A stretch of 32,384 bases of DNA, taken from contig JALGVI010000031.1 in the NCBI GenBank assembly GCA_029838215.1, forward strand, positions 1 through 32,384, read 5' to 3'. The stretch's first letter is position 1. Each line of letters opens with the position of its first letter. This DNA is from Candidatus Helarchaeota archaeon. Its GTDB lineage: Archaea; Asgardarchaeota; Lokiarchaeia; Helarchaeales; RDOG01. The notes below the pieces were generated by a model, which saw only the letters and a list, made by a program, of their open reading frames with translations, was not told where the DNA came from and ran no database searches. Below are positions 1,975-32,384 of this stretch, one piece after another. A program made the translations under genes and the position numbers.

Positions 1975-2919
1975 ATGGACGATTTTATTTTTATTCAAGC
2001 CAATAATCCCATGTGGCCAGCATCCGCGAACATTTTTGCCATCAAGGACGATGATGGATGGATTCTCATCGATGTAGGATGCGGATTGCGCAAATTTACA
2101 AAGCTCTTTTTTAAAAAACTCGAACAACTCAACTTGAACATCAAGAACGTTCACACGATTTTAATCACGCATGCTCATCCAGATCACATGGGTGCAATGA
2201 AAGCCGTTTTGAAAAAAATTAATCCCAAAATCATCATCAATGAAATCGAAAAAGATAGCGCACTGAACATTGATTTGCTCAATAAATCGTTTAGCATTGA
2301 CGTGATGGAAGCATATTTTAAATCCAATCTATTTGAGTCACCTGTAATAATGCCTGACGGACCATTTGATATAAATAAATTCTTTCAATTCATTTGTTCA
2401 ATGTCCCAGCTTCCCGCAGACATCGAAATACAAACAATCAAAGATGATGAAATTATCTGTTTAGGCGAATACAAATTTAGAGTCCTGACAACACCCGGTC
2501 ATGCTCCAGGTCATACGTCTCTTCATGAAGTAAATCATCAATTTCTCTTGTCAGGCGATATCATTGGAGAGAAAGGAGTCACGTGGTATAGTCCGGGCTC
2601 GGGTGGAAGCAAGAGTTTGCTCTCAAGCTTGGATAGAATTGAAAAACTCCCCGTTAAATCTGTTTTTCCTTCACATGGAAATAAATTTGAGAATTGCAAG
2701 CAAAGAATCAAGGAAATTCGCCATAAAATCTTGCAACGAAATGAACTCATCTTGGAAGAACTCGAAAAGGGCCCAAAAACCCTTCAAAACCTGGTGAAGA
2801 GCCTCTTCGGCTCGACAGGCACTAAACTAATCGGTGTCGTCATTGTTGAAAGTCATCTCAGGGAGCTTGAAAGGACGGGTTTAATTGAAAGATCGGACAA
2901 TTTGATAAAAAAAATATAG
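1975..2919 (+). CDS. Metallo-beta-lactamase-fold hydrolase with C-terminal winged-helix-like domain
   Basis: THAHPDH (HxHxDH), GHAPGH, SGD and PSHG motifs. The C-terminal ...ESHLRELERTGLIER helix is typical. ATG at 1975; the ORF extends to a TTG at 1963. Confidence 0.88.
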   Translation: MDDFIFIQANNPMWPASANIFAIKDDDGWILIDVGCGLRKFTKLFFKKLEQLNLNIKNVHTILITHAHPDHMGAMKAVLKKINPKIIINEIEKDSALNIDLLNKSFSIDVMEAYFKSNLFESPVIMPDGPFDINKFFQFICSMSQLPADIEIQTIKDDEIICLGEYKFRVLTTPGHAPGHTSLHEVNHQFLLSGDIIGEKGVTWYSPGSGGSKSLLSSLDRIEKLPVKSVFPSHGNKFENCKQRIKEIRHKILQRNELILEELEKGPKTLQNLVKSLFGSTGTKLIGVVIVESHLRELERTGLIERSDNLIKKI

Positions 2920-2942
2920 AAAAATTTGTTTATTTGTTGCAT

Positions 2943-5006
2943 TCAGGCGTATGGCATGAACAATTTTCCAGCGATAAACAAGGTCATTAATAATGCGTTG
3001 AAAATGGTCGTGCTCAGAATATTACGCGTTCTTTGGTAGATATAGGCAGAAGCAATTCCGGTAAGGAAGAATAGGAAAATCAGACCTCCGAAAATGGCAA
3101 TCATGAGATGCGGTGCAGAAAGGAATAATCCCCCGATCATGAATAGTAAATTAAATCCGAATCCAATACCAATACTCACGCCACTTAAAGCCCCAGAGAT
3201 GAGCACAGTCTTCCATTGTTTGAGCTTTCTGGCATTTGTTTTTTCAATTTTCGACTGAAATAGCCCGCGAAATATTAATTCAATTCCGAAATTCAAGAGA
3301 AAGAATACTCCAAACAAGAAAATAAAATCAATCCATGCCATTGAATCAAACGGTCGTGGCAATAGAATGGGGACTTGGAATAACCAACCCACGAGATCAA
3401 ACACGAACACGCATGCTAATATCGCCAAAACGGGAATTAGAAGACTTTTTAGATTATTTGAGATCGTGCCATTAATTCCAATATCCTGAGATTTAAAACC
3501 ATAACGTTTGACTTCAATGTAGCATAAGATTATTGAGAACGGTAATAGAACGATACCGGAAATGAAAAATCTCGGAATTAGCAAGTCCACTATCCAGAAA
3601 TGCGTGAGAGATGGAAGTTGAATCAACCCTGAAAGTGAAATGCTCACCGCAGGAACCGCAATATAAAGTAAAATTTTCTTTTTTTGCACGAATCCTTGAT
3701 TCATAACCTTACTGGGAAGAATTGGCTTTGGACCAAGCCTGGACGTGCTCAAATAGGAGAAAAGAGGCAAAATGCAACCAATAGCTCCTAATAAAATTAA
3801 AGCCCATCCGATCATCTTGATTAAAAATGGGACATTTGCAAGGATAGAAACATTCGAATCAATTCCAACGCACTCCATTGACTCATCGAACCACGTTACT
3901 GTCGTTTGCAAGCAAGTATACGAAAATGCTTCCATCAAGTGTTCGATACCGGGAACTAAAACGAAACGGCGTGCGGAACCATTCGAAATCGTGCCATAAT
4001 TCCATGCATGATTAGGTGCATGAATCACGGTATCATAAATCGATTGCCACGATACTTCAGGAGTCCCACTGGAATTTATTGTCGAGTTAGCCATTAGATA
4101 ACTTTGAGCTTCAATTGTCGTTAACTCATCAAGGCTCCCCGTGACCAAGCAAAAATTGGGAATGTTCGAATTGTTGATGTAATTGGAGACAGACCTAATC
4201 CGAACCTCCTCTTCCAATATCGAGGAATCGTAATTTGAAAGCCATCTCCAATAATTTAAAAGATTTAAAATAACGGGATGATTCCACACGTCAGAAACAC
4301 CTAAAAGATCCGACATTAGACCGCCAGCCATTGTCGACAAGTCATCCCAACAATAAATTGCACAATAAGATCTAATCAGACCTCCTGTACCGATCTTCCG
4401 ACCTGTATTCGGATTTGTCCAGTTATCAAATATTCCCGACCGGGTTGTTACAATTCCTCCCATGCTGTGACCTGATACACCAATCCGTGTTGTATCAATA
4501 ATGCTCTTATATGGCGAAGAATTGACGAGCCAGTCTACCGTAGAATAAACACCGGCAATAGCCTGTATGCCCATGTCCCACAGCCCACTTGACCATCCAT
4601 GCCCGGGTTGACTAATTGCTATGGCTATAAACCCGCTTTTTGCAAATTGTCGTGCATAATTTATCTGTAATTCAGCACAAGCACCAAATCCATGCATCCA
4701 TATGATCACGGGATAACCTGCTGACGGTTTGGGTGTTCTTGGAAGGATAACATAACCTCGCACCCAATAGTCCTCAAGCAATTTATTCTGAGCATCTTCT
4801 CGAGCCGTGACTACGGTTCGATTGAAAAAACTGTTTAATTCGATGGTATAACGGGACGACGTTGGAAATTGGATGGGAATGGGTAAATTTTCATCAATAG
4901 AGAAAGTGCCAAGAACAAGGAATAGAGTACCAACAACGAAAGTAATGCAAAAAACAATAAATAGGAATTTCCTATTAATCACGCGTTTTAATATCCCCAA
5001 AATCAA
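2943..5006 (-). CDS. Membrane-anchored alpha/beta hydrolase fused to a multi-TM domain with degenerate CPBP/Abi (CAAX protease-like) motifs
   Basis: N-terminal TM anchor, HGFG oxyanion motif, GHSMGG nucleophile elbow, candidate Asp (GSLDE) and His (GIEH). The C-terminal TM region has IELIFRG and YQRTRN..TTIFN. Confidence 0.8.
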   Translation of the reverse strand: MILGILKRVINRKFLFIVFCITFVVGTLFLVLGTFSIDENLPIPIQFPTSSRYTIELNSFFNRTVVTAREDAQNKLLEDYWVRGYVILPRTPKPSAGYPVIIWMHGFGACAELQINYARQFAKSGFIAIAISQPGHGWSSGLWDMGIQAIAGVYSTVDWLVNSSPYKSIIDTTRIGVSGHSMGGIVTTRSGIFDNWTNPNTGRKIGTGGLIRSYCAIYCWDDLSTMAGGLMSDLLGVSDVWNHPVILNLLNYWRWLSNYDSSILEEEVRIRSVSNYINNSNIPNFCLVTGSLDELTTIEAQSYLMANSTINSSGTPEVSWQSIYDTVIHAPNHAWNYGTISNGSARRFVLVPGIEHLMEAFSYTCLQTTVTWFDESMECVGIDSNVSILANVPFLIKMIGWALILLGAIGCILPLFSYLSTSRLGPKPILPSKVMNQGFVQKKKILLYIAVPAVSISLSGLIQLPSLTHFWIVDLLIPRFFISGIVLLPFSIILCYIEVKRYGFKSQDIGINGTISNNLKSLLIPVLAILACVFVFDLVGWLFQVPILLPRPFDSMAWIDFIFLFGVFFLLNFGIELIFRGLFQSKIEKTNARKLKQWKTVLISGALSGVSIGIGFGFNLLFMIGGLFLSAPHLMIAIFGGLIFLFFLTGIASAYIYQRTRNILSTTIFNALLMTLFIAGKLFMPYA

Positions 5007-25944: not shown

Positions 25945-27195
25945 TCATTCCAGCCTTCTGAATTTCAGGATTTCTTTTATTTCTTCATTTACAGTTCTTC
26001 GTAAGCCCGTGATTTTTTCGGCTTGTGCTTCAACTTCGGTCTTGACTTTCTTTTGTCGTGGCTCCATTGGCATTGTTAATCTGAAGTATTCAATCCATTC
26101 TCGAACGTGTGCCATTTGGTATTCGAGGGTCGTGAATCGATCTTCAATCGACGTGGAAAGACCAATCATCAAGTTAAGAACACGTTCCAGCGTTTGGCCG
26201 AGAGTTTCTTTGTCATATCCCTTGCCCGTTTCCTCTACGCTCAAGAAATTACGTATTTCCTCAACGACTCTTGGATTTTTTCCAAGACTGTTATAGATAC
26301 TGGACTTTAAGATTTCAACTTCAAGATTTTTCTCCGAAAATATCTTCGTGACCTTTTCGGTTAGAAATTCAATGGCTTCAACAATTTCCTTTCGATCCTT
26401 TACATCAGGATCATATTTATGAAGCAGGACTAAAAATCCAGGTTTTTCCTTCAAAGTATCAAGGGCATTCAAGACGTTTTTGAGATATTCTAATGATTTA
26501 TCAAAAACATCAGGATCTTGGACATCAATGACGTATATTAGAAATTGTACCTCTAAAAAGAAGCGTTCAGGATCATCTAGATATTGATCTCGATATCGAT
26601 CCTGTCCGCCCATATCCCAAATGACTAAATCGGTATCCTCACTTGAAAAAAACTCACGATTCACGCCTTTTGTCGGTGGTAATTTGCAAAAAATTTCCAA
26701 ATTGACATTGTTTTGCAAAACATTTAGAATGGATGTTTTTCCGGCATTGCTCAATCCCACAAGTAAGATCTTAGTTGGTTCGGAGCTGATTTCAGGCTTT
26801 GTCGCAACGCTTTTCGTTTCTTTCGCTTGAGTTACCCTTTTCTCACTTCTTTTTGCCTTTTTTTTCTGCTTTTTAGCCTTTTTTACGGGTTTAGGCTTTG
26901 ATGTATCGAGTTTAATGTCCAATTCAGTTACCTTTTTAGCAATTGAGATCCATTCTTCGATTTTTTTGTGTCTGATATCTGCTTTAATGAGATCTTTTAA
27001 CTCAGATGTTCCGATGGCGACCTCTGAAAGACTTTTGATATTCGATACCTTCAGGATTTTTTTAAGTGCAGTTGCTTCTTTTCTTCCAACTTCCGTTAAA
27101 GCAGTTACTGGAAGATCTGCAACAGTTTTTGCTTTTTTACTTGTTTTTGGTATTTTTATCAAATTTTTCAATTCTTCGGGAAGTAAATCACTCAA
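25945..27195 (-). CDS. Rag/Gtr-like GTPase with N-terminal HhH-like domain, Lys-rich linker and C-terminal coiled coil
   Basis: GLSNAGKTS, PPTKG, WDMGGQ, HKYD, SSIY. N-terminal LPVTALTEVGRKEATALKKILKVSNIKSL and linker KPKPVKKAKKQKKKAKR. Confidence 0.85.
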   Translation of the reverse strand: MSDLLPEELKNLIKIPKTSKKAKTVADLPVTALTEVGRKEATALKKILKVSNIKSLSEVAIGTSELKDLIKADIRHKKIEEWISIAKKVTELDIKLDTSKPKPVKKAKKQKKKAKRSEKRVTQAKETKSVATKPEISSEPTKILLVGLSNAGKTSILNVLQNNVNLEIFCKLPPTKGVNREFFSSEDTDLVIWDMGGQDRYRDQYLDDPERFFLEVQFLIYVIDVQDPDVFDKSLEYLKNVLNALDTLKEKPGFLVLLHKYDPDVKDRKEIVEAIEFLTEKVTKIFSEKNLEVEILKSSIYNSLGKNPRVVEEIRNFLSVEETGKGYDKETLGQTLERVLNLMIGLSTSIEDRFTTLEYQMAHVREWIEYFRLTMPMEPRQKKVKTEVEAQAEKITGLRRTVNEEIKEILKFRRLE

Positions 27196-27214: not shown

Positions 27215-28159
27215 TTATGTAATTAATTTTTTGAAGATCCAATGCATTCCATTGTAGATTCCTTCTCCTGTAACAGCACTTGTCAAATACATGTTCCATT
27301 CTCGATCCTTTATTTTATTCAACTCCAATTCCTTTATGACATTCTTCTTGGATATTGATGTTCCCAAATCTTTCTTGTTTGCTAGAATCAGAAGGGGAAT
27401 TCCTGATGATTCAGGATAGTCTAAAATTCGAAAAAGTTCTTTCTTCGCCTCTACATATCGATCCTTGTCATGGATGTCTATTACAAAAACTAAAACATTC
27501 GGCTCCTTCAGATAATTCCTCCAAGACCTTCTAAAGCCGATTTGCCCGCCAAGATCCCATGCTACTAAATTCACGTTATCCAAAATGAAATTTAATAGGT
27601 TTAAATTGAGCGTTCGATTTGTCTTGACGAATTCATTTCGTCTCAAGCGTTCCAAAATGGAGGTCTTTCCGGCTCGATCTAAACCAAAAACGAATAGTTT
27701 CAACGATTTTTTCTTGGTTATGATGGATTTTGGAAGGACCTTTGAAAAGTTTTGTAATAAATCCTTAATTTCGGCATTTTTCTCATTGATTTCGTCAACA
27801 TCCCCATGTCCCGAGATATGAACGTAAAATCCCTTGAAAATATCTTTCTTGCTCAATAATTCAATTACGAATTCTGCCAGAGGAATGCGAAAAATCTCAC
27901 CGTCAATGTTATCTTCGGAATAGGTGATGGATATGAGGGCCATCTCTTTTTTGCCTCTTGCCCACTCCGATGGGACCTCGAAATAATAGTTAGCGGTCTT
28001 GAAATTGTCAAATGAATGAATGAAGAACTTCTTATTTCCTGCAAAATCAAGAAGCCGAGAAACTTCTTTATCCTGTTCAGACACCTCTTCGTCTTCAGGG
28101 ATCTTACAAAGGATTGATGGGCCTCTTATTCGATGAAAATATGTCAAGAGTATGACCAT
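27215..28159 (-). CDS. Longin/uDENN domain fused to a C-terminal Arf-like GTPase
   Basis: N-terminal ILLTYFHRIRGPSILCKIP...SEWARGKKEMALISI. C-terminal GLDRAGKTS, WDLGGQ..FRRSWRNY, NKKD, TSAVTGEG...MHWI. GAGGTGA SD supports the ATG at 28159. Confidence 0.87.
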   Translation of the reverse strand: MVILLTYFHRIRGPSILCKIPEDEEVSEQDKEVSRLLDFAGNKKFFIHSFDNFKTANYYFEVPSEWARGKKEMALISITYSEDNIDGEIFRIPLAEFVIELLSKKDIFKGFYVHISGHGDVDEINEKNAEIKDLLQNFSKVLPKSIITKKKSLKLFVFGLDRAGKTSILERLRRNEFVKTNRTLNLNLLNFILDNVNLVAWDLGGQIGFRRSWRNYLKEPNVLVFVIDIHDKDRYVEAKKELFRILDYPESSGIPLLILANKKDLGTSISKKNVIKELELNKIKDREWNMYLTSAVTGEGIYNGMHWIFKKLIT

Positions 28160-28180
28160 GTTGTACAGCTCACCTCTCAA

Positions 28181-29401
28181 TTATAGGAAGAAATTCTCCA
28201 ACCATGGATAAAGTTTTTCAGAAAATCCCTTGGTTTCAATGATTTTGTTTTCATCATCCGTGAGAATTCCGATGTAATAATTGTTTTCGAGGATGGGAAC
28301 CCTAAGTATGATGAATGTTTTATCGTCAGGCAAAACGTGGAATGATAACTTATCAGTTTCAAGCTTTCCAATAGCAGCCGTGTTTTCAAGCGTTTGACAA
28401 AACGTAGAAGAAATCATTGTTAGATTATAAAGTCGTTCGAATGCAATATCATCTTCAGAATGGCTCGAGATTTCGAACCCAAATTCATCAATCAGAACGA
28501 TTTGTTCCACGCCAATCTGGTCTCCAAACTCCCGTATGATGCCATTAATGATCTTATCATGGCTAGATATCATGTTTAATCCTTCGGAAAATGCCTTGAA
28601 TATCGTTGATGTCTCAAAAATGCTCGTCTCGAAGATCCTGTACTTTAAATCAGGGAATTTTTCAAGAATCTGTCGAAATTCCAATTTTATTGCAGATGTA
28701 ATCAAGTCAGAAACATCAGGGTCCATTTTATGAAGCAAAACCATTATAATGGGCGTTTCGTTCAGATAATTTATCATTGAAAGAACCTTTTCGAAGTATT
28801 CCAGTGCTTCCAAGTATCGTTCTTTGTCCTGCACGTCAAGCATGAAGTATATAATGTCTGTTTGAACAAAAAAATATTCGGGTTTTTCCAGATATTGCAT
28901 TCTGTAATCCTTCTGACCACCCATATCCCAAATGGAGAATTCGAAGTTATGAAAATGAAAATTTTCTCTTTTTACACCTTTTGTCGGTTTCAGCCCGAGT
29001 ATGGTTTTTGAGAGTCTTCTGAAAGATCCTTTTGGATTATTCCGAATTATTTCTAGAGTTGCAGATTTTCCAGCGTTATCAAGCCCGACCACTAGTATTT
29101 TCTTTCCAGTTATTGCTTCTACTTTAGTTGCCCTTGCTGCAATACGTGCTGCTGCAATCCAACGTTCAAGTTTTCTCAAATCAATTCCTAAATCTGAAGG
29201 TAAATTCTTCAAATCCACGTCTGCCAAATTTGCAATGGTCTTTACATTCAGTTTTTCATCCAAGTTAAATGCATCGCCCTTGTCAACGTCTTTAAGTGTC
29301 CAGACAGGTAGGTTCAAGAGCTCTTTAATGGTTTTTGGTTCTTTTGGAACGTCTATTATGGAAGAAAGTTGTTTTAAAATATATTTTGTTGAATCATTCA
29401 T
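28181..29401 (-). CDS. Rag/Gtr-like GTPase with N-terminal HhH-like domain and C-terminal roadblock-like domain
   Basis: GLDNAGKS, KPTKG, WDMGGQ, HKMD (as in RagA/Gtr1), TSIFE. The C-terminal GVEQIVLIDEFGFEISS fits a roadblock pattern. Confidence 0.87.
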   Translation of the reverse strand: MNDSTKYILKQLSSIIDVPKEPKTIKELLNLPVWTLKDVDKGDAFNLDEKLNVKTIANLADVDLKNLPSDLGIDLRKLERWIAAARIAARATKVEAITGKKILVVGLDNAGKSATLEIIRNNPKGSFRRLSKTILGLKPTKGVKRENFHFHNFEFSIWDMGGQKDYRMQYLEKPEYFFVQTDIIYFMLDVQDKERYLEALEYFEKVLSMINYLNETPIIMVLLHKMDPDVSDLITSAIKLEFRQILEKFPDLKYRIFETSIFETSTIFKAFSEGLNMISSHDKIINGIIREFGDQIGVEQIVLIDEFGFEISSHSEDDIAFERLYNLTMISSTFCQTLENTAAIGKLETDKLSFHVLPDDKTFIILRVPILENNYYIGILTDDENKIIETKGFSEKLYPWLENFFL

Positions 29402-29477: not shown

Positions 29478-29984
29478 CTAATTATCCCAGGAAATCCACT
29501 CCCGAGTTTTCGTATTGGGAAATTTTGTAAACTTGAATAGCCGTTTAACCTCTGTTTCTAAAGCGGATTTATATTTATCATGCAATTTCATGTAATTGGA
29601 CTTATGCTTGTTGATGATTTTTTCAATCTCTGGAGCGAATTCATGAAAATCACTAATTCGATTAGTATTGAGCTTGCTTGCAAATCTTTCATTAAATGTT
29701 CGTGAGATTTCGCTTAATATTTTGGTAATGAAACGGCGATCCGCTTCAATAGACGCAACGACCGCAACAAAATATTCGTTGAAAAACTTCAAGGTAATTC
29801 TTTTATTCTGAAGTATGATTTCTTTGATTTTTTCACCCATTGTCTCTCGAATTATGGAAGACAAGGTACTCAACAAACTTGAAGTAAGGAATTCCTTGTT
29901 ATTGAAACCCGATGAGACATTCTTTAAAGGATAGCTATACATGAGAACACCTGAATATCGTATAATATAGATTTCGCTTATCAC
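29478..29984 (-). CDS. Longin-domain protein (paralogue of 13874-14428)
   Basis: YIIRYSGVLMY...LTSSLLSTLS...GEKIKEIILQNKRI...ILSEISRTF. The GTG start overlaps the upstream stop (ATGTGA). Confidence 0.75.
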   Translation of the reverse strand: MISEIYIIRYSGVLMYSYPLKNVSSGFNNKEFLTSSLLSTLSSIIRETMGEKIKEIILQNKRITLKFFNEYFVAVVASIEADRRFITKILSEISRTFNERFASKLNTNRISDFHEFAPEIEKIINKHKSNYMKLHDKYKSALETEVKRLFKFTKFPNTKTREWISWDN

Positions 29985-30904
29985 ATGATTTCTCCTTCAT
30001 TTATGGGTATTTCATCAAAAACTACGGGTTTGGAAAGAATGCCAAAGATTTTATTCCAATAAGTTTCTATTTCCCAACTTTCATTCAGCTTGATTTTCTC
30101 GGAAACTTCTTCTAGGCATTTTTTAACTTGTAATGACTCGAAATAATTGATCATTGGCGCAATGACGGCTAACATGAATCTGCGGTGTCCGCCTCGAACA
30201 TCTTTATCAGGAACTGAGTCGAAATAGATATATCCATATTTATTGATGTTTTCAATCGGCAGGAGAAGACCTTGAGCCTTTTGCAAGTTTTGCTGCCCGT
30301 ATATTGAAGCAGTAGCAATGAAGAGTTGAGTCCCGATATTTTGAATGGAGCTTGGAAGACCCACATTAACGGGATGACATTTCTCCAATTTAGGACCAAT
30401 GGCTTCATCCCAATTAAAGAATGCTACAAAAACTTGAGATTTTTCTTTTGATGAAATCGATGGTTGTGAAGAAATCCCGAGAGATGCCATTTTTTGGCTG
30501 ATATTTCTCGCAATCGACATTATTTTGTGTTTTCGGGAGATTTTGCCCGCAATGGTCGCAAGCAAGTCCTCTTCTTTAAATGGCTTGGTTAAGTAATCAT
30601 CAATTCCGAGCAACTTGCCTATCCGAATGTCGTCAGGAGTCGCGCGGGCAGTCAGAAAAATAAATGGAATCTGATTCCACCTAATATTTTCAGAAACCGT
30701 TTTGAAGAATTCATACCCGTCCATCTCGGGCATCATTATATCGCTAATGATGAGATCCGGGAGTTGTTCCAGTTCATTAAGCTTTTTTAATGCCATTTTT
30801 CCGTTTAATGCTGTAATAACTTCATAGTCGTTAAATTCAAGCGTGACCCTGATATTTAATGCAACACCCGGATTATCTTCAACAACCATTATCAGTGGTT
30901 TCAT
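29981..30904 (-). CDS. Response regulator receiver domain fused to a longin/uDENN output domain
   Basis: VVED, IISDIMMP (phospho-Asp), FLTA and LTKPF are all intact. C-terminal FFNWDEAIGPKLEKCHP...PDKDVRGGHRRFMLAVI. GAGGT SD upstream. Confidence 0.9.
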   Translation of the reverse strand: MKPLIMVVEDNPGVALNIRVTLEFNDYEVITALNGKMALKKLNELEQLPDLIISDIMMPEMDGYEFFKTVSENIRWNQIPFIFLTARATPDDIRIGKLLGIDDYLTKPFKEEDLLATIAGKISRKHKIMSIARNISQKMASLGISSQPSISSKEKSQVFVAFFNWDEAIGPKLEKCHPVNVGLPSSIQNIGTQLFIATASIYGQQNLQKAQGLLLPIENINKYGYIYFDSVPDKDVRGGHRRFMLAVIAPMINYFESLQVKKCLEEVSEKIKLNESWEIETYWNKIFGILSKPVVFDEIPINEGEIM

Positions 30905-30947: not shown

Positions 30948-32384
30948 TTATATTGGAGGTTTGTCCAGTTTTGGAAGGAAAACTGAAAAGATAGAACCTT
31001 TCCCAAGTTCACTTTGTACGAAAATTTTGCCGCAATGGAGCTTGGCTAACTCTTGGGCGATGGGTAAACCTAAACCAGTCCCTGGGATTTCTGATACATC
31101 TTTGCACCGATAAAATCGCTCAAATATGTAAGGTAATTCATCTTCTCGTATTCCCATTCCATTATCAATAACTTGGATAAGAACTCCATCTAAGTTTTCT
31201 TTGTTATATTCTCCTAGATACATGTCAATAACATTAATAATAATCTTACTATTATTTGGTGAATATTTAATGGCATTATCAATTAATATTCTAAAAATCT
31301 GAGATATTTTGTGCGAATCACCCTGTAAATAAATGCTCTCATTAAGTTCTAACACGATTCTGACATTATTTTTTTGTCTCTTCGGCTCCAATTGCGTTAA
31401 GACTCTTGTGATAAGATCTAAAATGTCATACCGTTTCCATTCAAATTTTATCCTTTTTTCATCAATACTGGAAATGACAAGAAGATCTTCTATTATTTCG
31501 GTTAATATATCCGCATTTAAAGTCATTACCTTTAATAATTCACGCTTCAAACCTTCAGTCATTCGATCTTTATATTTATTCAAGTTACTAAGGGATTGAT
31601 GGATAACAGATATTGGAGTACGTAATTCGTGAGAAACGGTCGATACAAATTGCTTTCTCAAATTATCGAATTCAACAAAAGATGTAACATCGTGTAAGAT
31701 GACAATTGTATTTGGCTCATCATCACCTGTAAGCTTCAATTTTTTAAAATCAAGCTGTAAATGATATCCACGCAAGGGTTCTATTGTTGTAGTTTTAGGT
31801 GTATTCGACCCGATCTGGTTTTTGATTTCTTTAAATAAACGGCTATTCGAAATTTCTAAGATATTAATATCATCGGGTAATTCTTGCTTAAAAATTTTCT
31901 TGTAAATTTCAAGAAAGGTCTTATTTGACATTATTATTTGTCCGCTCTTGTTGATTACAAATATGCCATCGGGGATCGTTTCTAAAATTGCTTCAATTCG
32001 TTCTTTTTCTTTAGCTTCTCTCAATCGTAATTCTGCTTCTCTTTTTTCTGTAACGTCCAGAATAGTTACTAAAATGGCTTCTTCTCCTTTATAATGAATG
32101 ATTTTTGCATAAGCCTCAAACCATTTAACATCCCCAGAGCCCGAAATGGTTCTCCGAAATGGTTCTGTATGAAATATGTTGGAGCCTTTCCTTCATCTTT
32201 GATATGGAATGGGAAAATAATATATTGAGTACATGCTCCCTGTCATCGGGATGGATGATTTCAATAAACTTGTCTCTTGACCAAGTCATTATTTCTTCAA
32301 TAGAATGGTCGAAGTATTTAGATATCACCTCGTTTAAGTATTTAACACGACCACCTTGAATGATGATGACTCCAAGTATCGCCT
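30948..32384 (-). pseudogene. PAS-domain sensor histidine kinase, 5'-truncated by the window and frameshifted at 32141-32166
   Basis: H-box VSHELRTP, N-box IDNAIKYS, DNGMGI, GTGLGL. The PAS C-terminal half (GDVKWFEAY...ILDVTEKR) is in frame upstream of 32024. The PAS N-terminal half (IIHPDDRE) is in another frame that stays open to the window end. Confidence 0.88.
32141..32166. repeat. Perfect 13-bp tandem duplication CCGAAATGGTTCT x2
   Basis: Read directly. Removing one copy restores ...HISYRTISGSGDVKWFE... as a continuous frame. Confidence 0.95.

Follow-up and report, generated by a model that had tools for sequence, protein, structure and literature searches.

A receiver-longin response regulator with folliculin-like sequence elements in a Helarchaeota operon of Rag- and Arf-like GTPases

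A 32,384-nt stretch of DNA from a Candidatus Helarchaeota archaeon (contig JALGVI010000031.1 of assembly GCA_029838215.1, positions 1 to 32,384; hereafter the window) was found to encode a response regulator whose predicted output is a longin domain of the type found in eukaryotic GTPase-activating proteins (GAPs). The regulator gene lies at 29981..30904 on the minus strand and its open reading frame translates into 307 residues, in which an N-terminal receiver leads through a long helix to a C-terminal domain of 155 aa. It belongs to a run of six co-oriented, tightly spaced genes, encoding a PAS histidine kinase, the regulator, a 168-aa protein and GTPases of 406, 321 and 416 aa. The C-terminal domain is confidently predicted by structural modelling to be a longin domain with GAP-type longins as its nearest solved relatives; on these models the regulator has no DNA-binding output but a GAP-type longin one. 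We consider it likely that the protein is a GAP-type longin that regulates Rag-like GTPases. For the full model of an arginine-finger GAP gated by phosphorylation, in which we infer both the catalysis and the gating, our confidence is evenly divided. The receiver-longin fusion is an already published concept, and the increments offered here are small, namely the combination of a C9orf72-type WD motif with an FLCN/SMCR8-type arginine in one chain and a Helarchaeales-type operon with three downstream GTPases.

The longin domain occupies residues 146-300 (30005..30469, minus strand), as placed by an AlphaFold2 (AF2) domain model and by structure searches. A first-pass annotation, made from the DNA letters alone, had described a response-regulator output domain with an FLCN/SMCR8-like arginine finger at 29981-30450, a span that covers most of this domain, and the two peptide segments on which that description relied, FFNWDEAIGPKLEKCHP and FDSVPDKDVRGGHRRFMLAVI, are both present in the 307-aa translation. 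The domain model, built from a 68-sequence alignment, has a predicted local distance difference test (pLDDT) score of 94.6 and a predicted template modelling (pTM) score of 0.88, and the AF2 model of the full-length regulator has a pLDDT of 82. Its secondary structure elements follow the longin order b1-b2-a1-b3-b4-b5-a2-a3, with strands at model residues 14-21, 25-32, 66-72, 77-87 and 95-104 and helices at 42-63, 109-127 and 134-146. The regulator chain stops seven residues past the longin domain, and carries neither a C-terminal DENN domain nor the NPRL2-specific domain.

An exhaustive structural comparison of the domain model with 48,161 PDB representatives using VIA-align returned folliculin (6nzd_H) as the top match, with a Z score of 12.5 and a root-mean-square deviation of 2.5 Å over 130 residues. 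This was followed by the Lst4 longin (Z 12.0), a Lokiarchaeal roadblock-longin protein (Z 11.6), C9orf72 (Z 10.9), SMCR8 (Z 10.0) and an Npr subunit of the SEA complex (Z 9.9). Generic longins scored 8.7-9.7 (sedlin 9.7, with VAMP7 and Sec22 in the same range), CPLANE 9.0, Mon1/Ccz1 8.0-8.4, roadblock proteins 7-8 and PAS/GAF-like folds at most 7.2, so that the GAP-type longins lead the generic ones by just 1-3 Z units. Foldseek likewise placed the active FLCN GAP complex first (8dhb_J, E 6e-5), ahead of three GATOR1 entries, DENND10 and FNIP2 (E ~1e-4). The nearest structural clusters in the ESM Atlas comprise Heimdallarchaeota proteins, some of them annotated with PF11704 (Folliculin), eukaryotic SMCR8-like proteins (SMCR8_C), 'UDENN FLCN/SMCR8-type' proteins, C9orf72, an Asgard cluster partly annotated as PF06218 (NPR2), and Asgard longin-Arf fusions.

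Two sequence elements of the domain correspond to elements on which known longin GAPs depend. The candidate arginine finger is located in the loop D233-K-D-V-R237-G-G (30188..30208, minus strand; reads DKDVRGG), and the arginine codon reported earlier at 30194-30196 does encode Arg237. In the domain model this is residue 92, within a loop (residues 88-94) that joins strand 4 to strand 5, which is the position of FLCN R164 and SMCR8 R147 in their own longin domains; the equivalence is drawn from topology and local motif, not from coordinate superposition. Arg147 of SMCR8 has been described in a structural paper as lying in the betaL4-betaL5 loop, as the counterpart of FLCN Arg164 (beta6-beta7 in FLCN numbering). 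The FLCN sequences quoted in the first-pass annotation agree with the PDB chain sequences (FLCN 156-178 and 1-26), including the place of R164, and its proposed D-x-x-[AV]-R-G-x-x-R-x-aromatic pattern aligns D233-K-D-V-R237-G-G-H-R241-R-F243 with D160-S-L-A-R164-G-F-Q-R168-W-Y170 of FLCN without gaps, pairing D233 with D160, R237 with R164, G238 with G165, R241 with R168 and F243 with Y170.

The second element is the first-hairpin motif W165-D166-E-A-I-G170-P171 (30392..30412, minus strand; reads WDEAIGP), in which W165-D166 end strand 1 and G170-P171 begin strand 2 of the model. It aligns with FLCN F10-C-E-L-H-G15-P16, and in the profile alignment W165-D166 fall on C9orf72 W33-D34 and G170-P171 on G38-P39, with an asparagine of C9orf72 at the position of Arg237. 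In the active FLCN complex residues 10-16 touch RagC, the F10D substitution abolishes GAP activity and Arg164 sits beside BeF3, and the GAP activity of C9orf72-SMCR8 is reported to require W33-D34 of C9orf72 together with R147 of SMCR8 (PMC12290439). The GP motif has been reported as specific to GAP-type longins, spatially next to the arginine finger, and as absent from the non-GAP longins of TRAPP, adaptin and DENND proteins (PMC12290439). Judged by its sequence, then, one Asgard chain holds elements that the human C9orf72-SMCR8 (CSW) complex divides between two subunits.

A full scan of 1.84 billion representative sequences identified a family of 278 proteins at E <= 0.001, 155 of them at E <= 1e-10. 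The typical member has ~295 aa, with the longin domain following a receiver-sized N-terminal region of ~150 residues, and some members are PAS-fused, longer or stand-alone; the window's own genome encodes a single one. Across 122 full-length domains from the family representatives, W165 is conserved in 95%, D166 in 77% (a further 11% have Asn), G170 in 96%, P171 in 93%, R237 in 72% (a further 4% have Lys) and G238 in 50%, with Ser or Ala otherwise. A search of species-representative genomes with the narrow family profile (A2) yielded 41 loci, all of them from Asgard archaea, and here the arginine is present in 40 of the 42 complete domains. The expected conservation of the arginine among Asgard homologues was thus borne out in the genome set and less so in the broader one, where it is missing from about a quarter of the 122 domains. 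Members without it, PAS-fused ones included, often have a 3-residue deletion in the loop. Since the arginine motif aligns with that of FLCN in ungapped register on the equivalent loop of a confidently predicted longin fold, the W, G, P and R positions are conserved in the family and the arginine recurs in 40/42 genome domains, we regard the motif match as more than chance.

Several relatives depart from the window's architecture. In the PAS-longin proteins P0011, P0012 and P0018 the linker helix and the WD and GP positions are kept while a 3-residue deletion removes the arginine, leaving a C9orf72-like motif content. A Hodarchaeota locus (L035) carries receiver-longin genes in tandem (1162-2091 and 2134-3039), both with WD, GP and arginine and followed by a kinase gene and two GTPase genes; this pair could be a natural heterodimer.

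Related loci connect the regulator with small GTPases. At 32 of the 41 loci the gene immediately upstream of the regulator encodes a kinase. Where the sequence extends far enough beyond the kinase to be informative (26 loci), a small GTPase gene (product ~185 aa; Pfam Arf/Gtr1_RagA) begins or ends within 400 nt of the kinase start at 22 of them, on the same strand in 20/22. The resulting GTPase-kinase-regulator cassette occurs on one strand at L014, L015, L017, L020, L022-L025, L027, L030-L032, L036, L038, L040-L042, L044, L045 and L047, and with a divergent GTPase at L008 and L009, in genomes of Hod-, Hermod-, Heimdall- and Promethearchaeia type; the articles consulted contain no description of it. 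The closest relatives of the window, the Helarchaeota-type loci L003/L007, L005 and L052, share its layout, in which the GTPases lie downstream of the regulator. In the phylogenetic tree the upstream GTPases form one clade with three stand-alone paralogues from the window's genome, sister to the clade of the 406- and 416-aa proteins, and the GTPase encoded downstream at L007 is an orthologue of the 416-aa protein (support 99/88). The 416-aa protein is also the window GTPase closest to the regulator-syntenic GTPase of other Asgard genomes, with which it is 39% identical. The whole 3.6-Mb genome encodes just nine such GTPases at E <= 1e-10, three of them within the operon, and the linkage between regulator and GTPases is therefore far beyond chance. 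We also searched the window for a counterpart of the conserved upstream GTPase, but the contig breaks off within the sensor region of the kinase or immediately before it. Contig C102 begins with a truncated paralogous GTPase, and the gene that follows there is a 168-aa-like one and not a kinase.

The input half of the regulator is an intact receiver (REC) at residues 5-118 (30551..30892, minus strand), assigned to Pfam PF00072 (Response_reg) with a score of 85.8 bits (gathering cutoff 30.2; E 2.9e-24). Its active-site set is complete in the translation (E9-D10, Asp55, T85 and K107-P108) and is kept in the REC-fused relatives (alignment A1); the codon of the phospho-acceptor Asp55 is at 30740-30742 on the minus strand, within ISDIM at 30734-30748. 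According to DSSP on the AF2 model, a linker helix at residues 111-142 (30479..30574, minus strand) extends alpha5 of the receiver into the longin domain. The linker columns can be aligned between REC- and PAS-fused members, with an invariant G120 (alignment A1). As the helix is also found in the PAS-fused relatives, the design may be a generic one of sensor, helix and longin.

On these features a mechanism can be proposed. The PAS kinase would phosphorylate Asp55, and the receiver and long linker helix would then alter the pairing or orientation of two longin domains. A homodimer would be the simplest such pair, since the C9orf72-type WD element and the SMCR8/FLCN-type arginine are combined in a single chain. 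The paired longins would bind a GTP-loaded Rag-like GTPase, for which the 416-aa and 406-aa proteins of the operon or a stand-alone paralogue, for example at G000 C27:34856-35386 or C52:1377-1907, are candidates; any one of the operon's three GTPases might be the substrate, as might a different GTPase. Arg237 would enter the nucleotide pocket and join the invariant switch-II glutamine of the GTPase to speed hydrolysis, the net effect being a small GTPase switched off by a His-Asp phosphorelay. The phosphorylation-gated GAP that had been suggested for this gene is supported to the extent that the domain appears to be a GAP-type longin, the arginine lies on the expected loop and is largely conserved, and the family is linked in genomes to Rag-like GTPases; as an idea it is not new.

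A structure prediction for the putative complex, in which a pair of longin domains was modelled with GTP, Mg and the GTPase domain of the 416-aa protein and the score was taken on the GTPase only, gave weak support, with a median score of 0.59 against 0.06 for the best of three controls. The runs agreed in at least 61% of contacts and the partner had a pLDDT of at least 83. Of 80 solved complexes in the benchmark 58 attained the mark, as did 2 of 110 mismatched pairs, and scores of 0.60 or lower were obtained for just 7/80 solved complexes and for both of the mismatches that passed. As FLCN-RagC, CSW-ARF1 and GATOR1-Rag complexes have already been solved, the pass may reflect likeness alone, and we count this prediction as a small increment at most.

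A number of observations weigh against a catalytic role for the regulator. Eukaryotic GAP longins are heterodimers with a DENN or other C-terminal domain, which the regulator lacks. The complex prediction passed just weakly and reported no interface. The arginine, at 72%, is conserved less than the W and GP positions (93-96%) and its loop is shortened in some members, so that the hairpin may matter more than the arginine. The synteny has exceptions, as locus L001 has no GTPase gene within 7 kb of the regulator (a weak GTPase-like ORF lies ~8.5 kb upstream) and L006 has its GTPase gene solely upstream of the kinase, on the opposite strand, and none downstream. At the level of sequence, a Pfam scan of the window's longin domain returned no family even at E <= 10, among them PF11704 (Folliculin), PF15019 (C9orf72-like) and PF06218 (NPR2), and in searches of the PDB the narrow profile A2 matched the C9orf72 longin at E 0.06, the sole solved protein found by sequence, a match that was lost with the broader 68-sequence profile (A3), whose single row was a chance hit (E 1.4). 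Longin and roadblock platforms, finally, act mainly as guanine nucleotide exchange factors (GEFs) according to the literature, and the majority of longin domains serve as GEF platforms or scaffolds and not as GAPs.

The last point underlies the main rival explanation, which we judge unlikely, that the longin output binds GTPases as a non-catalytic platform and serves, as most longin/roadblock dimers do (TRAPP, Mon1-Ccz1 and Ragulator), as GEF, scaffold or localisation adaptor. In that case phosphorylation would act on binding or exchange instead of hydrolysis, and the part of Arg237 would lie in binding or in structure. The model does also match generic longins and the subunits of tri-longin GEFs well (sedlin, Mon1/Ccz1 and CPLANE, with the Z scores given above), the arginine is dispensable in about a quarter of the representatives, and synteny with GTPases is compatible with any kind of regulator. 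The best structural matches are nonetheless specifically GAP-type longins, the GP motif reported to be absent from non-GAP longins is among the most conserved features of the domain (93-96%), and the WD and arginine elements that are essential in the C9orf72-SMCR8 and FLCN GAPs are both present and in register. The direction of signalling might also be reversed, with a GTP-bound Rag-like GTPase binding the longin domain to modulate the phosphorelay, for example through receiver dephosphorylation or kinase activity, and the regulator serving as an effector or feedback element. The GTPase gene comes first in the cassette at most loci, an order compatible with the GTPase as an input, and the weak pass of the complex prediction shows binding at most and not its direction; but C-terminal domains fused to receivers normally serve as outputs, the motifs conserved here are of catalytic type, and the linker and longin are common to PAS-fused relatives, suggesting that signals run from sensor to longin. 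We consider this reversal improbable.

Least probable of all, in our view, is a resemblance at the level of fold alone. The domain would then have nothing to do with GTPases and serve for dimerisation, as a membrane/SNARE-like module or for small ligands, and the arginine match would be a coincidence. Homology to eukaryotic families is marginal by sequence: besides the C9orf72 match described above, PF11704 was matched weakly in 4 of 14 close relatives, with a best E of 0.013, and neither link is matched by anything found with the broader profile. PAS/LOV folds also appear in the Foldseek list, further down, and as well as the one relative with no GTPase gene nearby, an Arg-less PAS-fused relative is located among redox genes. 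This fits poorly with GTPase synteny at 22/26 informative loci in view of only ~9 such genes in 3.6 Mb, with motifs conserved in register on the equivalent loop, and with the occurrence in Asgard archaea of Arf-like GTPases to which a longin of this kind is directly fused. Our preferred reading is a regulator of Rag-like GTPases that is controlled by phosphorylation and probably acts as an arginine-finger GAP.

The Arg-less PAS-fused relative just mentioned (L051:7001-7969) was examined on one long contig, where redox genes surround it and neither GTPase nor two-component genes are neighbours.

The cognate PAS histidine kinase (30948..32024, minus strand; Pfam HisKA, HATPase_c and PAS) lies 43 nt upstream of the regulator. 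Its ORF begins at a TTG codon at 32024, and upstream of it a PAS-like ORF in another frame (32125-32382) runs off the end of the contig. The homologues of the kinase have 536-964 aa, and the sensor part of the window kinase looks split, frameshifted or cut by the end of the contig (32025-32384).

Downstream of the regulator, the gene for the 168-aa protein (29478..29984, minus strand) has a start that overlaps the regulator stop by 4 nt. This protein is probably longin-like. It matched no Pfam family, and comparison with profile A3 gave nothing (E 0.19); in the ESM Atlas it resembles Asgard proteins, among them a Fuz_longin_1 cluster (0.91), a likeness that we take as a lead only. We considered a role for it as a conserved FNIP-like partner to the regulator and discarded this, as the small proteins encoded at the same position in relatives are not detectably similar. 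Paralogues of the 168-aa protein adjoin stand-alone Rag-like GTPase genes elsewhere in the genome (G000 C102:443-955; C27, L049:5277-5708), and it looks like a GTPase partner in its own right rather than a dedicated partner of the regulator.

All three GTPase genes are on the minus strand. The 406-aa Rag-like GTPase (28181..29401) has an N-terminal helix-hairpin-helix (HhH)-like extension and a C-terminal one, matches Pfam Gtr1_RagA (E 3.4e-27) and Arf (E 3.6e-18), and falls into a Rag-like clade in the tree. The 416-aa Rag-like GTPase (25945..27195; Gtr1_RagA, E 2.8e-26) shares the N-terminal HhH-like region, which in the 406-aa protein weakly matches Pfam HHH_5, and a gene of L052 (10251-11393) also combines HHH_5 with a Rag domain. 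Between them lies the gene for the 321-aa Arf-like GTPase (27215..28180), with Pfam Arf at residues 151-318 (E 1.2e-47) and an N-terminal longin-like domain. Residues 1-150 of this protein contain an F-x-x-x-R-G-P hairpin and an E-W-A-R-G-K loop of their own. Profile alignment of this N-terminal domain with A3 was weak (E 0.011, probability 3.7%) and placed the loop on Arg237; we do not take kinship as shown. The GTPases keep the GxxxxGK[ST] motif, the invariant DxxGQ glutamine and the Rag-type HKxD motif.

Fusions of NPRL2-like longins to two-component domains in Asgard archaea have been reported previously (Liu et al., bioRxiv 10.1101/2020.10.19.343400; Nature 2021) and were read as prokaryotic two-component control of eukaryote-like Rag regulators. 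The architecture class is the same as in the window, a GAP-type longin joined to receiver or PAS modules, although that account comprises one paragraph and a figure, and its text does not analyse the arginine or the WD/GP hairpin, nor the GTPase-kinase-regulator cassette or the Helarchaeales-type operon. More recently, 15 Asgard FLCN/SMCR8-type longins were described with a GP at the start of strand 2 and an arginine arranged as in FLCN, SMCR8 and NPRL2, and GAP activity on Asgard Arf-related or Rag GTPases was proposed for them (Traffic 2025, PMC12290439). The window domain shares their GP motif and arginine finger, whereas the text of that article names no response regulators and proposes no partner GTPases; in the window a receiver has the longin as its output, and candidate substrates are encoded in the same operon. 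A 2018 census of archaeal two-component systems listed no receiver-longin type, the sole related output being the Roadblock-related NitrOD3 (Galperin et al. 2018).

Among characterised systems, the closest is FLCN-FNIP2 (Lst7-Lst4 in yeast), the GAP for RagC/D (Gtr2) (6NZD, 6ULG, 8DHB), which provides the best structural match, the arginine loop motif and the F/W...GP hairpin, and whose clients, like the likely clients of the window regulator, are Rag-like GTPases. The regulator differs from FLCN in lacking the zinc-binding insertion and the DENN domain, in its Lst7-like size and in its fusion to a receiver; no FNIP/Lst4-type partner was identified, and sequence similarity is below curated thresholds. 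Yeast Lst7 consists of a longin domain only, and a DENN domain is thus not universal in GAP-type longins, as noted in a structural paper. With C9orf72-SMCR8, a GAP for Arf and Rab GTPases (6LT0, 7MGE, 7O2W; Z 10.9 and 10.0), the regulator shares the WD and GP positions, but in CSW the WD (C9orf72) and the arginine (SMCR8 R147) are on separate subunits and in the window both are in one chain. GATOR1 (NPRL2-NPRL3; Npr2-Npr3 in SEACIT), the GAP for RagA/B (Gtr1), likewise has an arginine-finger GAP-type longin, retrieved by Foldseek as 9v0j, 9o5d, 9o5a and 8adl; the regulator has neither the C-terminal domain specific to NPRL2 nor a DEPDC5 partner. Prokaryotic parallels are found in the Thaumarchaeota REC-NitrOD3 regulators (Galperin et al. 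2018), in which a His-Asp receiver is coupled to a Roadblock-like module of the roadblock/longin superfamily, and in the Myxococcus MglA/MglB system with the response regulator RomR, where MglB is a roadblock GAP for a small GTPase. Both NitrOD3 and MglB have roadblock rather than longin topology, MglB has no arginine finger and NitrOD3 has no known link to a GTPase. In strain MK-D1 small GTPase genes are generally found outside operons with longin or roadblock genes (Tran et al.), which makes loci like the window useful for matching regulators to their substrates.

Eukaryotic nutrient signalling and membrane traffic depend on longin GAPs for Rag and Arf GTPases, namely folliculin, GATOR1 and C9orf72-SMCR8. 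The operon described here resembles a compact prokaryotic version of such a system, with a sensor kinase, a receiver-longin protein that holds three GAP-associated elements and three candidate GTPase substrates in 6.4 kb, and its value is that of a good experimental candidate rather than a discovery. Should GAP activity and phospho-gating be shown, they would provide the first biochemical evidence of Rag-type GTPase switching before eukaryotes, wired to a two-component system. We tentatively raise the further, rather doubtful, possibility that the receiver-longin family preceded the heterodimeric longin GAPs of eukaryotes as a homodimer of a single kind of chain. Each chain would hold both halves of the composite site, the WD-GP hairpin and the arginine, and pairing driven by phosphorylation through receiver and linker helix would assemble an active GAP for Rag-like GTPases. 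If this were true, Asgard archaea would switch Rag-type GTPases off by a His-Asp phosphorelay, and the division of eukaryotic longins into catalytic and non-catalytic subunits would have arisen later, through duplication and complementary motif loss.

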